Shown: positions 19,852 through 26,051 of the stretch, one piece after another | Layout: the number at the start of each line of letters is the position of its first letter | How positions within the stretch are numbered: position 1 is the first letter of the stretch | Assembly (NCBI GenBank): GCA_964393695.1 | Contig: CAYMWC010000004.1 | Span: 298-64,297 of the forward strand | Direction of reading: 5' to 3' | DNA: 64,000 bases | DNA from: an uncultured Pleurocapsa sp. | Lineage (GTDB): Bacteria; Cyanobacteriota; Cyanobacteriia; Cyanobacteriales; Xenococcaceae | Notes under the pieces: generated by a model | Databases searched by the model: none | What the model saw: the letters and a program-made list of their open reading frames with translations, nothing else | Told to the model about the DNA's origin: nothing | Position numbers and translations under genes: made by a program

Positions 19852-21939
19852 CTATGTATTGTCTTGGGCAATTGCTTGTAAAGCAGCTTTGATTAATTGA
19901 AAATAGGGAGGTTGAGTAACATTGACAGATTTAGCTTCATTTCTACTTTTACCAATTAGTCCCTGGCGATCGCCCTGATGAACAGCTAAAACATCACCGC
20001 GATCGTTTCTAATCCTTAGTTCTTGGCAAGATTTACTGCATACATAGATCCTACCATTATGGGTAAATACTGCTTTTTGGATATTATCGGTATTAATTCG
20101 CTGATTTAGTTGGGTAATCTGATTACTGGGTGTAGCTTGGGGCAATTTAACTCCCACAAGTTCTAGTTCAATACTCGTGTGTCCCTGCCAATGATTCTCT
20201 TTTAATTGATAAGCAATATCGAGATATTCTGGTAAAGGACAGTATTCTCCCCATCGCCAAGCTAGTGCCTTGATTTGGAAGTCTGAATTAGCGTCTTGTA
20301 AAGTTAACTTTAAATGGCTACGGCTTTTCCCGATCGCTTTTTGCTCAATGACTCTTACATTAGGTGTCCAAAATACAGGGGGACTATTCCCAATTCCCCA
20401 GGGTTGTAAACCTTCTAGCTGTTCGTATAACTGATGATTGATTTGTTCTAAGCTGGCTTGAGCATCTATTTTCACCAACGGCTTGAGATGTTCTACCTTT
20501 AAACATTTATGGGCAAACTCGCTCAATCTTTGTTTAACTTGTTCCAAATTACTAGCAGGAAAACTAAAACCCCCTGCTGCTCGATGTCCACCAAATTTTG
20601 CTAATAAATCACTGCAATAATTAAGGGCATCAAAGACATTGAATTCATCGATACTTCTAGCCGAGCCTCGAATCATTAGACTAGTTGGAGATGCAGACGA
20701 TTCTGATTGCTCATGTTCATCTTCATAAGTACCAATAAAAACTGGTACACCATAACGCTCCACTAGACGAGATGCTACAATCCCAATAACTCCATGATGC
20801 CATCCTGCTGCTACTACTACCAAAACCCGATCACGCTGCCAGGGAATAGGAGTAGATTCTACGAGAGCGATCGCTTCTTTTTCAATTTGTTCGCATAGCT
20901 GCCGACGTTTTTGATTAATTTGTTCGCACTGCATTGCCCTTTCTAAAGCTAACCCAGGCTCATCAGTAGTCAATAGCTCAATTACCATTTGTGGATCGCC
21001 GATACGTCCTACTGCGTTAATTCTAGGCCCTAAGCGAAACCCAATATCATCGGGTTTTAATTGTTTCTGTGCCTCATCAACTCCTGCTACCTGCATTAAA
21101 GCTTGAATACCTAATAATTCCGAATTAGGTAAAGCTCTTAAACCCCGCTTGAGCCAACGACGATTTACCCCCACCAAAGGAGCTAGATCGGCGATCGTCC
21201 CCAGGGTAAACAATTCTAAAATCTGATTAGTTAAACCCTTTAATTTACCTAAACTTTGGGCTGTCGCGATCGCCAGAATATAGGCTACCCCAACTCCTGC
21301 TAACCCTTTATAGGGAGAGCTATCAGGCAATAACTTGGGATTGAGGATCGCATCCGCTGGAGGTAATCTATCTGGTAAGTCATGATGGTCGGTGATAATA
21401 ACACTTAAACCCAATTCTATTGCTCTGGCGATCGGCTCATAAGCAGAAATGCCGTTATCGACCGTGAGAATTAAACCTACCCCACCAGTAGCAAATTCTT
21501 CGACAATCCGTTGATTAATGCCATAACCATCCTTCATCCGACTGGGAATTGCGTAATCTACCTCTGCCCCTAAATGCTTTAAAGCCCTTAATAACAAGGC
21601 AGTACTGGTCATTCCATCCGCATCATAATCCCCACAGATAGCAATTTGTTCTCCTTCGGCGATCGCCTGTTTAATTAACTCGACACTAACTCCTAAATCC
21701 TGAAATTCAGATAAGGGAGAAGGCAGATGTTGAGATTCTGGTTCAATGTAAACCTGGGCTGCATCTACAGTAGCAATATCTCGATTAATAATTACTTGTG
21801 CCACTAATGGTAATAAACCAGTAGCCCGACTCAATTCTAAAGCTCTTTGAGGCTGAGGTGTAGCAATCTGCCATCTTTGATTAGGAAAGCGTTTGGGGAC
21901 AGAGCAATTACCCTGTGGGTATACTTCGTGAACGCTCAT
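19852..21939 (-). CDS. recJ: Single-stranded-DNA exonuclease RecJ
   Basis: GDYDADG, LTVDNG, TDHH, GT.ADL, PRINA.GR, GGH.AAGG, PWGIGN. Confidence 0.97.
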   Translation of the reverse strand: MSVHEVYPQGNCSVPKRFPNQRWQIATPQPQRALELSRATGLLPLVAQVIINRDIATVDAAQVYIEPESQHLPSPLSEFQDLGVSVELIKQAIAEGEQIAICGDYDADGMTSTALLLRALKHLGAEVDYAIPSRMKDGYGINQRIVEEFATGGVGLILTVDNGISAYEPIARAIELGLSVIITDHHDLPDRLPPADAILNPKLLPDSSPYKGLAGVGVAYILAIATAQSLGKLKGLTNQILELFTLGTIADLAPLVGVNRRWLKRGLRALPNSELLGIQALMQVAGVDEAQKQLKPDDIGFRLGPRINAVGRIGDPQMVIELLTTDEPGLALERAMQCEQINQKRRQLCEQIEKEAIALVESTPIPWQRDRVLVVVAAGWHHGVIGIVASRLVERYGVPVFIGTYEDEHEQSESSASPTSLMIRGSARSIDEFNVFDALNYCSDLLAKFGGHRAAGGFSFPASNLEQVKQRLSEFAHKCLKVEHLKPLVKIDAQASLEQINHQLYEQLEGLQPWGIGNSPPVFWTPNVRVIEQKAIGKSRSHLKLTLQDANSDFQIKALAWRWGEYCPLPEYLDIAYQLKENHWQGHTSIELELVGVKLPQATPSNQITQLNQRINTDNIQKAVFTHNGRIYVCSKSCQELRIRNDRGDVLAVHQGDRQGLIGKSRNEAKSVNVTQPPYFQLIKAALQAIAQDNT

Positions 21940-22138
21940 TATTTAATCTGATAAAGGTAGATTTTCACAAGCTATATTAGCCTGTAATTTTACTATATAG
22001 TCTGTTAATCTTATTGATTACGACCAGCGATCGCCTGAAAATTCATATTTATTTCTTTTTTTGCTTTAGGTTCACTCCAAACAGATTTAGCTTTGCACTT
22101 TTATTAAATCTAATAAAATCTCACAACAAATAGACTTT

Positions 22139-22855
22139 ATGCATTCTGCCAATAAGCAAGCGAATTTTGCTACTTCATTCCTAAACCTCAGTCGTTTAAG
22201 AAGCGAGACTATTCAAAACAACCACACTAAGTCCGAACTAGATTTGATTTATTTAGAAGACTCCGTAATTCTCCAGATCAAAAGAACCAACCAACCCGTA
22301 GAGACATACTATGGTTTTGACTTTCAAGCAGCCCAAAGAATTAAATCTGCTTGGGAATGGGAAGCAGAAGAAGAGTTAATGGCGATCGCTTCTGCTTCGG
22401 AAAACGCATTGTTTGTTATGGGGTGTGACTTAAAAACTTGGGAAATACCTTTTAGTTGCCTCCCTTGTTTAGATCTAGTTCCCCAGTCGGAGAAAGGTAA
22501 TTTTCAACTTGACGAGGATGGTAGTTACCTTTATTGGGAATGTGCCGATCTTCATGTCGATCTAGAAGAGATTAAAGCTGCCGTCGATCCTAAATTTAAA
22601 GAACAGCTTTTAGTTGAAAAATTAGAATATGGTAAATCCTTTGGTAAGGCGATCGCTTTTGTGAGAAAAGCCCACCAATTAAATCAAAGTGACATTGAAG
22701 GTATCTCAGATAGACACCTCAGAAGAATTGAAAACGAAGGACAACAGCCAACCTTAGATGTTTTGAAAAAATTGGCTGCATCTCATGGACTAGATTTGGA
22801 AGATTACTTAACAGAAGTCAATCAATTTCTCTTCAACACTCAATCTCAGACGTGA
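22139..22855 (+). CDS. DUF2442-like plus C-terminal XRE-type HTH protein
   Basis: F.LDEDGSYLYW...DLHVDL DUF2442-like segment; RKAHQLNQSDI..ISDRHLRRIENEG..PTL..L.KLA HTH. Confidence 0.75.
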   Translation: MHSANKQANFATSFLNLSRLRSETIQNNHTKSELDLIYLEDSVILQIKRTNQPVETYYGFDFQAAQRIKSAWEWEAEEELMAIASASENALFVMGCDLKTWEIPFSCLPCLDLVPQSEKGNFQLDEDGSYLYWECADLHVDLEEIKAAVDPKFKEQLLVEKLEYGKSFGKAIAFVRKAHQLNQSDIEGISDRHLRRIENEGQQPTLDVLKKLAASHGLDLEDYLTEVNQFLFNTQSQT

Positions 22856-22911: not shown

Positions 22912-23835
22912 TTATTTGTTAACTAATAATTTATTGCGCTTAAGATGTCTTCTAATTTCCCTTAAGCAAGCAAGTAAGCCATCAGTATGAATCCAGCCCA
23001 CATATCCACCAAAAATAAGATCACCAGACTTATCAGCAACAAATACGTGGAGAACATTTACAGGATTTCTCCAGGTTCTAACACTCACTCCACTTTTACA
23101 AGTAATAAAAAGTTCTGAACTAGAAAAATCTCTATGGTGCGCACTTGTCATGCCAGGTACTTGCTTAAACAACTGAATAATCTCTTTTGATTCGTCTACT
23201 TTGTATTCGTCGAGAATATAAGATTCTTCTTCAGGTTCAATAGTAATGACTCTTTCTCTGTCTTGTTCTTTTGCTTCTATAACTTGTTGAGCAGACATTT
23301 CGTTTTCAACTTCACCCAGAAAAGAAATTATAGTATCCTGCTGAGGATTCATTAACATAGCCATAAAATTAAATAGTTGCTCTTTACTAAGATTATCTCT
23401 TTCGTCAATACGAGTCAGAGTACGGCTGAAATAATCTTGAGTAACTGGAACTAAACGTTTATCAAGCTGTTTTAAAACATAGTTAGTAAGAGCGATCGCT
23501 TTGTGAAATTCCACTAAAACTTCAAAAGAAGGATTGATATCAATGTCTTCTCTCAAAGCCATCAGTTCGTGATATAAACTAAGAGCTAAATAAACTAAAT
23601 CTTTTTCCATCTCCGACTCAGCTAGTTTGAGATTTAGATCGTTAATCTGCTTTTTACTTCTGTCAGAAAGTTCATAATATTGCTTTTGTAGTTTATCTCG
23701 GCTGTTAATTAATTCAGCGTTAACTTTTTCATATCGTTTTACAGCCTGTTTATCCTTTTCGTTAGCTGCCTGAGTTGTCAATACGCCGATAACTGCACCA
23801 GCAGCACCGCACGCTGCCATGATTAGAGGTAACAT
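22912..23835 (-). CDS. Hypothetical protein: N-terminal Gly/Ala hydrophobic helix, coiled coil, separate C-terminal domain
   Basis: MLPLIMAACGAAGAVIGV followed by a heptad-rich region; 307-aa ORF, 25 bp downstream of 23861..24880. Confidence 0.8.
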   Translation of the reverse strand: MLPLIMAACGAAGAVIGVLTTQAANEKDKQAVKRYEKVNAELINSRDKLQKQYYELSDRSKKQINDLNLKLAESEMEKDLVYLALSLYHELMALREDIDINPSFEVLVEFHKAIALTNYVLKQLDKRLVPVTQDYFSRTLTRIDERDNLSKEQLFNFMAMLMNPQQDTIISFLGEVENEMSAQQVIEAKEQDRERVITIEPEEESYILDEYKVDESKEIIQLFKQVPGMTSAHHRDFSSSELFITCKSGVSVRTWRNPVNVLHVFVADKSGDLIFGGYVGWIHTDGLLACLREIRRHLKRNKLLVNK

Positions 23836-23860
23836 AAAAGTAACTCCTATAATTTATAAT

Positions 23861-24880
23861 TTATTCGTTAATTGGTGGTAAAAGATTTTGCTGAGAAGCT
23901 TTCAGAGATTCAGATTGAGTTGATGCGTTTTGAAGAGAGTGATAAATCTGCCGAGATTCCATATATCGCTGCAAAGCACCTTGTACGCCAGACTCACGAG
24001 GACGATTAACAATTGCTTCTGTCAATTGCTGTTGTGCATCTAAAACCGACATAGTTTTTTGATGTTCATAGATTAATTCAGCTTCCACTTGACGGAGATA
24101 TAACAATTCTTGCTCAGTCATCGACTCGTAATAAGCCCTAACTTGCTGCTTATGATCGTCTAGAATTTTAAAAAACTCGTAAGTTAAACCAGCACCTCCA
24201 GCAACCCATAAAGCAGGGGAAATTGCAGCTAGAGCTATAGCGATGGGAGGACAAGCCGTTGCTATAGAAGTAACAGTAAAAGCCGTCGCAGCACCAACAC
24301 CAGCACCCATTACTGTTTCTTTAACCGTTTCCTTGGCAGCATCTTGAGCAGAAATTTCTCCTCTGACAACGCAAAGTCCGTTTCTGAGCATCGAAAAAGG
24401 AGCAGTTGTAATCGCACCTATTACCGCGCCTTTCGGTGCTGCACGAAAACCTGCTTGAATCGCTCCAGTCAAATTTTCCAATTGTGCTGTAACATCTAAA
24501 CTTCTTTGCTCTTGACGAGTCATATTGCGATCGCCACGAGCGCGATTAATTGATTTGTTCTCCCATTTAATATTGTCTGATTGACCCGAACCTCCACGAT
24601 TGTGAGATATTATGTGGCTGGCATCTTTATCTGATAAATATTCTTTGACATTCTTAGCCGCAGATTGTCCATCAATACCTGCTCTTTGAGACGGCGGAAT
24701 TTTATCCATCATTTGTTGCATTTCCGCCGAAGTACGACCTACGCCTTGACGTAACCCACCTCTACGTAAATGATTTATTTTTTCGGGAGTGAACCGAGTA
24801 ATATCATCTAATTGAGCATGATGTACCTTAGAACTAGCAGCAGCATTAAATGCTGAATTACGTTCAGAATCGTTTGACAT
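23861..24880 (-). CDS. Hypothetical protein with HNH-like nuclease motif and Gly/Ala-rich membrane hairpin
   Basis: DASHIISHNRGGSGQSDNIKWENKSINRARG; GAVIGAITTAPFS and GAGVGAATAF...IAIALAAISPALWVAGGAG. Confidence 0.75.
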   Translation of the reverse strand: MSNDSERNSAFNAAASSKVHHAQLDDITRFTPEKINHLRRGGLRQGVGRTSAEMQQMMDKIPPSQRAGIDGQSAAKNVKEYLSDKDASHIISHNRGGSGQSDNIKWENKSINRARGDRNMTRQEQRSLDVTAQLENLTGAIQAGFRAAPKGAVIGAITTAPFSMLRNGLCVVRGEISAQDAAKETVKETVMGAGVGAATAFTVTSIATACPPIAIALAAISPALWVAGGAGLTYEFFKILDDHKQQVRAYYESMTEQELLYLRQVEAELIYEHQKTMSVLDAQQQLTEAIVNRPRESGVQGALQRYMESRQIYHSLQNASTQSESLKASQQNLLPPINE

Positions 24881-25073: not shown

Positions 25074-25236
25074 GAGATTTCAAATCTAAATATTAAGAGA
25101 CTTAGTAGGTTTGGTAGAACGATTAATTTTAATTTAATTGATTATGACCAAATATATACAACAATTGAAACGAACTTAGATAAATAATAAAAGCGATCGC
25201 GAACAGTTGAGATTTATCTTAGATAGCCTGTGCGAC

Positions 25237-25258
25237 TACCCTTTGGGTAAACTTCGTT
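25237..25258 (+). repeat. SDR-like hairpin micro-element
   Basis: TACCC-TTT-GGGTA-AACTTCGTT; same architecture as 58867-58889. Confidence 0.65.
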
Positions 25259-25270
25259 AACACTCATCAT

Positions 25271-25591
25271 TTAATTTGGTAAATGTAGATTTTCACACGC
25301 TATATTAGCTTGATTAGCTTTATTTTTCCTTGCTTCTAAGAAGTTTAAACCAATCTGAGTAATTTCATACCTACAATGCTTGCTATCTTCTTGAGGTGGT
25401 AATTCTTTGATCAATTCGAGCTTGATTAATTCTTGGATTATGTAATATGTAGGAGGAGATTTAGGATATCCTTTTAATCTATTCATCCTAAGTTCAACAT
25501 TGTACCAAGTATATTCGCAATTGTGGTTAGCAATAATTTCTAAGATTTTGAGAGTGGCTTTTTGTTCAAGATAATTTATTTCATTTTTCAT
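25271..25591 (-). CDS. Small winged-helix-like protein, putative immunity protein
   Basis: GAGGA overlapping the upstream stop; LKILEII...TWYNVELRM...IIQELIKLELI...YEITQIG wHTH pattern. Confidence 0.7.
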   Translation of the reverse strand: MKNEINYLEQKATLKILEIIANHNCEYTWYNVELRMNRLKGYPKSPPTYYIIQELIKLELIKELPPQEDSKHCRYEITQIGLNFLEARKNKANQANIACENLHLPN

Positions 25592-25595
25592 ATTT

Positions 25596-26051
25596 TTATT
25601 CCTCATAAGTGGATAAATCATACAGATCATCATCAGCAAGGTTGTAATGTTCTAGTGTAGATGTATGATTATCATTCCAAAATTCATAGTCTAAATTAGG
25701 ATTATCACCATTTCGATATTTTATTCTTTTATATCTAAAGCTTTCTCTTAACTCGTGAGCAAAGGTATCCAAATCTCTTTTAGTTGGCTCTATTTTTTTA
25801 GATAAAATATCTACAAATCTTTGTATTTGTTTTTGATTTTGTGGATCAGGGTCAAAAGAGTTCATGTGTCTTGTTACCTTATCCAAGCCTATTTTTATAA
25901 TCTTAATTTTATCAGAAGATAATGGTTTCGATGATCTTGGTAAGCCCGCTCTATCAGGATAAAAAGGGCGATTGCTAGATTGACCTTTATGTGTCCCAAA
26001 ATTATACATGGGGTCAGAAGGGTCAATTGGAGAAAAATTTTTACCGCCCAA
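25596..26051 (-). CDS. Orphan polymorphic-toxin C-terminal-like domain (HELxE type)
   Basis: RPFYPDRAG, RHM..F, HELRE..RY, WND.HT.TLE.Y motifs that I recognise from Rhs/S-pyocin C-terminal tips; TTG start, in-frame stop 6 codons upstream. Confidence 0.7.
   Translation of the reverse strand: MGGKNFSPIDPSDPMYNFGTHKGQSSNRPFYPDRAGLPRSSKPLSSDKIKIIKIGLDKVTRHMNSFDPDPQNQKQIQRFVDILSKKIEPTKRDLDTFAHELRESFRYKRIKYRNGDNPNLDYEFWNDNHTSTLEHYNLADDDLYDLSTYEE

Follow-up and report, generated by a model that had tools for sequence, protein, structure and literature searches.

A predicted membrane-anchored HNH-type nuclease and its modular partner: a candidate two-gene conflict module of cyanobacteria

What might two adjacent genes do when both have so far been annotated as encoding hypothetical proteins, the first looking like a nuclease tied to a membrane and the second like a membrane-bound partner? 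The question is raised by a stretch of 64,000 nucleotides (nt) from an uncultured Pleurocapsa sp. (positions 298 to 64,297 of contig CAYMWC010000004.1 in the 6.24 Mb assembly GCA_964393695.1), hereafter the window, in which genes A and B follow one another on the minus strand. An earlier inspection of the letters without database searches (the sequence-only reading) had described them as two open reading frames (ORFs) 25 nt apart, an HNH nuclease with a membrane hairpin and a coiled-coil partner, and had proposed a candidate new defence or pore system without assigning it to any named one. Both frames exist at the positions given there (Table 1), the ATG of B is preceded by AGGAG at a distance of 8 nt, and our follow-up found no named system for the pair either. 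Here, from alignments and predicted structures, we assign a domain structure to both proteins, and we suggest that A and B make up a conflict (defence-type) module of two genes, self-contained, horizontally mobile and confined almost entirely to cyanobacteria, a proposal to which we give an even chance of being correct. In the Pfam copy used, no family matches A or B above threshold; no signal peptide was detected in either protein, and no account of the pair turned up in literature searches. A precomputed Pfam tag, PF26373, is attached to some homologues; its entry is absent from that Pfam copy, and the family may therefore already have a DUF-type entry.

The HNH-like core recognised in A by the sequence-only reading is borne out by conservation, modelling and fold comparison. 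The motif DASH...GG...NI..WE...NRARG corresponds to residues 86-116; in a superfamily alignment of 63 members, 20-76% identical to A, the residues P62, H89, E107 and N112 are invariant and G42, S88, N103 (at least 90%), R115, G116 and M120 nearly so, and D86 is invariant in an alignment of 21 orthologues. In the AlphaFold2 (AF2) model of A, confident only over most of residues ~20-130 (predicted local distance difference test, pLDDT, of 82-89), two strands (85-89 and 104-108) and a helix (109-115) fall exactly on this motif. The Foldseek comparison that the same reading had proposed does find an HNH-type fold there: against BFVD, a collection of viral models, many phage proteins labelled ‘HNH endonuclease’ are matched with a probability of 0.9-1.0 and a root-mean-square deviation (rmsd) of 1-3.5 Å over 36-50 columns, with E-values all above 0.1 because the core is short. 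Against the PDB, the HNH domains of Cas9 are among the weak matches. Thus, of the hallmarks of the HNH/His-Me finger group, the beta-beta-alpha-metal fold at the motif is found in the AF2 model and in the BFVD matches, and a conserved candidate general-base His (H89) is accompanied by Asn at the structural and metal-ligand positions (N112 and N103); no curated model of the group matches A above its cut-off. Below the cut-offs, the best Pfam match of A is Endonuclea_NS_2 over residues 73-126 (E 0.02, 15.5 bits against a cut-off of 27), and members of the superfamily match Endonuclea_NS_2 (four members), HNH (two; E 1.5e-3), HNH_4 (E 2.4e-4) and HNH_5. RefSeq labels some paralogues of A ‘HNH endonuclease’, and a sequence search of the PDB weakly returned the EssD nuclease (E 0.56). 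The D-A-S-H motif of A resembles the DRGH motif of Serratia and NucA-type nucleases. We accept that A carries a predicted HNH/His-Me-finger nuclease core in which putative catalytic-type residues are conserved. Two other searches were discarded: the 63-member profile found nothing real in the PDB, where the Ala-rich membrane region spuriously matched poly-Ala stretches, and with the full-length A model, whose long helices diluted the Foldseek search, the top PDB matches (ZorA, ESCRT-III/Vipp1 and ExbB) were not significant.

Among known nucleases, the nearest group is that of Endonuclea_NS_2 (PF13930) and Staphylococcus aureus EssD (PDB 8guo), with which A shares the beta-beta-alpha-metal core, a D-x-x-H motif offering a candidate general-base His, and Asn at the structural and metal positions. 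Unlike these proteins, A has its nuclease at the N-terminus, fused to a hairpin with two transmembrane (TM) segments and a helical tail, scores under all Pfam cut-offs, and lacks zinc-binding cysteines, a delivery domain and an EssI-type immunity gene. This likeness raises the question of whether A could be a secreted or contact-dependent polymorphic nuclease toxin and B its immunity protein, as its weak similarity to Endonuclea_NS_2 and to EssD, a toxin of the type VII secretion system, and the variable C-terminus of B (see below) would allow. However, A has neither a signal peptide nor a delivery or trafficking domain; its nuclease is a conserved N-terminal domain and not a variable tip at the C-terminus, the variability sitting instead in B; B is membrane-anchored and, in many relatives, carries nucleoside triphosphatase (NTPase) heads; and no secretion-system genes are conserved nearby. 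An N-terminal nuclease without a delivery domain, beside a membrane protein with swappable heads, does not reproduce the layout of EssD/EsaD-like toxin-immunity pairs, and we consider this explanation very improbable.

Downstream of its core, A is predicted to be embedded in the membrane. The Gly/Ala-rich hydrophobic helices noticed earlier correspond to a hairpin (residues 189-234, hydropathy 1.81) in which G192, G196, P211, P212, G228, G229 and G231 are invariant among the 21 orthologues; it follows an amphipathic helix, also present in the AF2 model, with a hydropathy of 1.22 over residues 153-172 and a match to Gly-zipper_OmpA that is not significant (E 0.12). The coiled tail of the sequence-only reading stands as a helical tail (predicted helices 230-253, 256-291 and 299-320, at low pLDDT); as a coiled coil it holds in part, only residues 306-334 being heptad-like by a crude score. 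Homologues of A number 332 at E <= 0.001, the 120 listed being at least 58% identical and drawn from several cyanobacterial orders; the names of the A and B homologues indicate a cyanobacterium of the Pleurocapsa/Xenococcaceae type. An exhaustive search added 302 more distant representatives that share residues ~38-240, that is the domain and the membrane region, behind varied N-termini.

B turned out to be differently built from the partner first described. Its N-terminal Gly/Ala hydrophobic helix is confirmed by hydropathy at residues 1-24, and conservation among 76 partner sequences reaches at least 90% at P3, G10, A11, G13, A14, G17 and A18. Its separate C-terminal domain is likewise found, as a small alpha/beta head at residues 215-303 (pLDDT ~80) for which Foldseek gives no significant fold match in the PDB. 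The long coiled coil reported between the two is modelled instead as a helical bundle, residues 29-86 alone being heptad-like by the crude score. In the AF2 model, with an overall pLDDT of 72, the TM helix covers residues 2-24, the chain is helical up to ~194 (the best bundle lying at 80-140) and a disordered linker spans 184-212. Only residues ~1-150 align across partners, and we name this conserved part, with its anchor, B-N; its helices reach a pLDDT of 90, and eight members have YtxH-like matches. The picture thus changes from a nuclease plus a coiled-coil partner to a nuclease plus a modular adaptor, the conserved pair including only the ~150 N-terminal residues of B. To our knowledge, such a pairing of an HNH hairpin protein with a B-N adaptor is undescribed and the architecture of the adaptor is unusual. 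The head of the window B, about 85 residues long, recurs in the same genome on a 299-residue protein, fused to an alpha/beta-hydrolase with the motif GHSMGG (G000:C59:130-1029, locus L121, minus strand), and is therefore a mobile module. The top Foldseek match of full-length B, a formiminotetrahydrofolate cyclodeaminase, was not significant (rmsd 16 Å) and was not used.

How constant the pair is could be followed in a scan of loci, built on alignment A1 (a divergent one, A2, varied too much to be of use here) and covering one genome per species, in which 88 relatives were found and 80 loci kept. All are cyanobacterial, with Xenococcaceae, Leptolyngbyaceae, Pseudanabaena, Chamaesiphon, Microcoleaceae and Nostocales represented, except one 15-kb contig binned as Rhizobium and probably misbinned. 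A B-like gene starts 10-40 nt past A in ~72 of the 80 loci, and clustering of all flanking ORFs revealed no third conserved gene. With a hidden Markov model (HMM) of the first 150 residues of B, which matches 87 loci, the co-occurrence check suggested by the sequence-only reading had a clear outcome: B-N adjoins every intact A with readable downstream sequence, locus L106 excepted. At two loci where A is cut at about residue 278 (L004 and L056, in a same-genus genome and a Pleurocapsa metagenome-assembled genome) there is no B, and a distant paralogue family of ~310 residues in Nostocales (loci L014-L030) has neither the helical tail nor a B-N gene. Since truncated A proteins and paralogues are without both, we infer that the A tail and B-N go together and probably contact each other. 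The paralogue family was present in 16 of the 19 genomes sampled from one Nostocales genus; one of its members, PCC7120DELTA_RS30235 on pCC7120alpha of Nostoc PCC 7120 (L123, 4635-5645), consists of the HNH core and membrane region with no tail and no B, among neighbours that include a gene with an HsdR N-terminal domain, a thermonuclease and an ISNCY transposase. In Nostocales cyanobacterium HT-58-2, an A-related fragment of 88 residues (L038, 9973-10239) lies just downstream of an intact A-B pair, possibly as the relic of a tandem duplication.

A tight two-gene operon at a distance suited to translational coupling could also be that of an addiction pair, or of a bipartite membrane-damaging pair, in which A is the toxin, as nuclease or as hairpin pore, and B restrains it. 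A highly conserved hairpin with invariant Gly and Pro and flanking amphipathic helices, carriage on plasmids and toxin-antitoxin neighbours (see below), and the fact that the nearest sequence relatives of the A core are the Endonuclea_NS_2/EssD toxin nucleases would all agree with this. Against it, distant A-like paralogues persist without B (the two truncated A genes without B may be decaying), neither A nor B matched any family of pore-formers or holins, and we know of no precedent for an antitoxin fused to a dynamin, ParM or FtsZ head of 350-750 residues; we consider such a pair distinctly unlikely.

The most variable part of the system is the C-terminus of B. Among the 76 partners, Pfam recognises Dynamin_N in 16, actin-like ALP_N/MreB-like_C in 16, LRV in three, GUN4, FGE-sulfatase and TPR in two each and FtsZ/tubulin in one, and 12 consist of B-N alone without a head. 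Admitting long proteins, the B-N search adds 65 more, some of them annotated as ‘dynamin family protein’ or ‘ParM/StbA family protein’; the long homologues include FtsZ+GUN4 fusions and one protein of 1234 residues with FtsZ, ParM-like and GUN4 parts. The motifs of the NTPase heads look intact, both [AG]xxxxGKS of dynamin-type heads and the two phosphate motifs of actin-type ones, and three genomes encode B-N and the dynamin in two neighbouring ORFs. The class of head changes at least 26 times on a tree of A quickly built by maximum likelihood; the closest relatives of the window A (77-83% identical) carry FGE or TPR heads, a pattern also seen in metagenome hits, and in some cases two A-B copies with different heads are found inside a single genome. 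The C-terminus of B has thus been exchanged repeatedly, even among close relatives. Two coding sequences annotated in RefSeq as ‘ParM/StbA’, AVA_RS27585 on plasmid A of Trichormus variabilis ATCC 29413 (L122, 10012-11571) and NPM_RS36260 on pNPM2 of Nostoc N6 (L124, 9016-10554), are apparently ~150 codons too short: their open frames begin right past the A homologue, and the omitted N-terminus is the membrane-anchored B-N.

That the pair is an accessory, horizontally mobile cassette is supported by its patchy distribution, its occasional duplication, its presence on conjugative plasmids and its position in the window. Among 401 sampled cyanobacterial genomes 44 match, ~13 of these having strong orthologues and some two copies, and in the same genus one of the two sampled genomes matches. 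The flanks of A-B are unrelated between genomes, with RecQ and SIMPL in one and glucokinase in another, and four full-length copies lie on plasmids typed as conjugative. On plasmid A of T. variabilis ATCC 29413 the pair, AVA_RS27590 and AVA_RS27585, adjoins phosphorothioation-associated genes, and on pNPM2 of Nostoc N6 it adjoins VapC, a HEPN protein and a helicase. In the window, A and B are part of a 3.25-kb insert bracketed by two direct repeats of 81 nt (85% identical; blastn E 1e-22), which duplicate the first 11-12 codons of recJ with the sequence upstream; a search for a longer diverged duplication behind the repeat found only one further weak block of 33 nt (E 0.05). Two other genomes from this genus have recJ next to the LCP gene (~140 bp and ~700 bp apart), without any of the genes that separate the two in the window.

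Table 1. Features of the A-B locus, in positions of the window
Feature	Positions	Strand	Description	Basis
Gene A	23861..24880	minus	339-aa membrane-anchored HNH-type nuclease (predicted)	ORF
A residues 20-130	24491..24823	minus	soluble N-terminal domain with predicted nuclease core	pLDDT; part common to distant relatives
A residues 85-115	24536..24628	minus	predicted beta-beta-alpha-metal core (D86, S88, H89, N103, E107, N112, R115)	conservation, model, fold matches
A residues 138-172	24365..24469	minus	Gly/Ala-rich amphipathic helix, weakly hydrophobic	hydropathy, model
A residues 189-234	24179..24316	minus	46-residue hydrophobic helical hairpin with CPP turn, predicted two-TM anchor	hydropathy 1.81
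A residues 236-320	23921..24175	minus	C-terminal helical tail, proposed B docking site	model helices, co-loss with B
A-B spacer	23836..23860	minus	25 nt, with AGGAG ribosome-binding site	sequence read directly
Gene B	22912..23835	minus	307-aa membrane-anchored modular partner	ORF, homologues and their domain fusions
B residues 1-24	23764..23835	minus	N-terminal TM anchor with conserved small-residue face	hydropathy 2.17
B residues 25-175	23311..23763	minus	conserved helical B-N module, sole part common to all partners	alignment, HMM, model
B residues 215-303	22927..23193	minus	small alpha/beta C-terminal head of this B variant	model pLDDT ~80
238-aa protein	22139..22855	plus	C-terminal XRE-type helix-turn-helix (HTH)	HTH_3 E 1.2e-4, PADLOC HTH_VI E 3.5e-7, weak capH
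Direct repeat, copy 1	21904..21984		true recJ start and upstream sequence, 81 nt
Direct repeat, copy 2	25232..25312		relic of recJ start; forms 3' end of 122-aa ORF

The insert also holds a gene, convergent with B, for an HTH protein whose N-terminal part of ~165 residues has no family assignment. Two overlapping ORFs of 151 and 122 aa on the minus strand (25271-26051), between the LCP gene and the repeat, have no confident family match and are absent between LCP and recJ in the two same-genus genomes mentioned above. None of the three was retained as part of the system, no homologue being present at any other A-B locus.

Several links of the pair to defence can be named, and we regard them as suggestive only. 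The PADLOC model PDC-M09B weakly matches residues 96-220 of A (E 2e-4) and two relatives, three members in all, and LeoBC gives weak matches in two relatives. The 125 neighbours of 32 dereplicated loci, a set examined without a control set, mix housekeeping genes with toxin-antitoxin, restriction-modification and candidate defence genes; they include Uma2, PemK/MazE, ParE, a Zeta-like kinase, PbeA, DpdF, methyltransferases, SoFic and an LmuA-like protein. In Lyngbya sp. CCY1209 (L070, 5648-12061), one same-strand row is made up of A, B-N, a dynamin-like gene, PDC-M09A (E 7e-109, with a weak LeoBC match at E 1.4e-6) and PDC-M09B (E 5.5e-164).

Other observations weigh against a conflict module. 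Many neighbours in the same set are housekeeping or ordinary metabolic genes; no known defence HMM matches A or B at full length; phage-borne copies were looked for and none was found; AF2 confidence is low for the TM and tail parts of A; A is 50-66% identical across orders, which is unusually high for a defence gene; and the clades of its tree largely follow taxonomy, with a few misplacements. The conservation and the tree of A also fit a vertically inherited cell-biological function with losses. An organiser linking membrane and DNA could be imagined, in which A tethers or processes DNA and B connects it to ParM, FtsZ or dynamin machinery, with a role in plasmid or chromosome positioning, in DNA uptake, or in the dynamics of thylakoid or septal membranes. 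In its favour, together with the purifying conservation of A and its housekeeping neighbours, are the fusion of B-N to intact ParM-like, FtsZ and dynamin modules and the location of partners annotated ‘ParM/StbA family protein’ on large plasmids. However, an NTPase head is lacking in the window B and in many others, or is replaced by TPR, FGE or GUN4; ~90% of sampled cyanobacteria, one of the two sampled same-genus genomes among them, do not have the pair, which in the window lies within an insert; residues of catalytic type are invariant, as would not be necessary in a mere DNA tether; and no ParR-like partner is conserved, insofar as there is no third conserved gene (parC was not searched for). 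The pair does not correspond to a type II ParMRC system either, as the window B has no ParM domain, ParM-like heads are found in just 16 of 76 partners, and no third gene is conserved, parC again lying outside the search. We consider an organiser of this kind rather unlikely, albeit the main competitor.

The preferred reading, a mobile conflict module, can be placed among systems with which the pair shares parts. SNIPE, a GIY-YIG nuclease bound to the membrane, cuts phage DNA as it is injected, and its sequestration prevents self-cleavage (10.1101/2025.11.03.685801). Like SNIPE, whose catalytic domain is cytoplasmic at the inner membrane, the A nuclease is predicted to be TM-anchored; unlike A, which combines an HNH core, a hairpin anchor and a separate partner, SNIPE is one protein with a single TM segment, DUF4041 and GIY-YIG, there is no homology between the two, and no Pfam or PADLOC match to such parts was found in A or B. 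In PDC-M09, a two-gene candidate system which is itself untested, M09B has a soluble N-terminus and a Gly-rich membrane region analogous to those of A, and M09A is helical with a Gly/Ala membrane segment, in a layout analogous to B; A gives only the partial match (E 2e-4, against 7e-109 and 5.5e-164 for genuine PDC-M09 proteins) and B has no match to M09A, so that the pair is not PDC-M09 with both genes at full length. Zorya offers a further parallel, with a ZorAB membrane complex whose long helical tail recruits nuclease effectors, A-B likewise combining helical extensions with a nuclease; however, A-B has no stator of the MotAB/ExbBD type, no peptidoglycan-binding subunit and no ZorC/D, no Zor model of PADLOC matches, and the fold match of ZorA to A is insignificant (E 0.11, TM-score 0.16, rmsd ~40 Å).

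The heads of B have parallels of their own. FGE-type, GUN4 and TPR domains are variable modules of cyanobacterial conflict systems (PMC7159879), and dynamins and tubulin homologues are among the NTPases in immune systems of multicellular bacteria (10.64898/2026.10.19.760177); neither of these papers describes an HNH-hairpin protein or a B-N adaptor. In Eleos (LeoA/LeoBC) and in conflict systems containing tubulin or ParA, NTPases that polymerise or remodel membranes are part of predicted or shown immune modules; some B homologues are full dynamin family proteins. Unlike Eleos, the window B has no NTPase and, in particular, no dynamin-type GTPase domain, which is present as Dynamin_N in 16 homologous partners. 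LeoBC is matched only weakly (E 1e-5 to 1e-6), in regions that are helical or membrane-spanning.

If A and B do form a conflict module, a mechanism can be outlined. The soluble parts of both proteins would face the cytoplasm, since they have no signal peptide and the residues that follow the TM helix of B carry net positive charge; A and B would be held in one membrane complex by the Gly/Ala faces of their TM segments and by the A tail together with B-N. By analogy with the unrelated SNIPE, tethering would keep a non-specific nuclease off the nucleoid and prevent self-cleavage. The head of B would detect a cue or supply drive: in the window it may bind a ligand or a protein, and in relatives it could act through NTP-driven polymerisation of dynamin, ParM or FtsZ. 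A protein of an invading element, a disturbance of the membrane or incoming DNA are candidate cues, upon which the nuclease would be set free, activated or gathered on foreign DNA, or, with an abortive outcome, on that of the host. A more specific version, for which we see a slim chance, is that of an ‘integrated-decoy’ receptor, in which B-N, as a membrane adaptor, would display copies of host FtsZ, actin-like or dynamin proteins, or binding repeats, as bait; factors of a phage or plasmid directed against these host machineries would trip the bait and set the tethered HNH nuclease free on the invader. We know of no description of guard or decoy immunity based on cytomotive NTPases in prokaryotes.

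Should the cell-biological alternative be the right one, the pair would represent a new link between membrane, DNA and cytoskeleton. If, instead, A and B are a conflict module, they would constitute an undescribed and mostly cyanobacterial immune architecture, in which a tethered nuclease is combined with one adaptor that accepts dynamin, actin-like, tubulin-like, tetrapyrrole-binding and repeat heads. This would extend the recent idea that self can be told from non-self by spatial sequestration in place of sequence recognition. It would also make the recruitment of cytoskeletal NTPases to immunity in multicellular bacteria experimentally tractable, as laboratory strains such as Trichormus variabilis ATCC 29413 have homologues.

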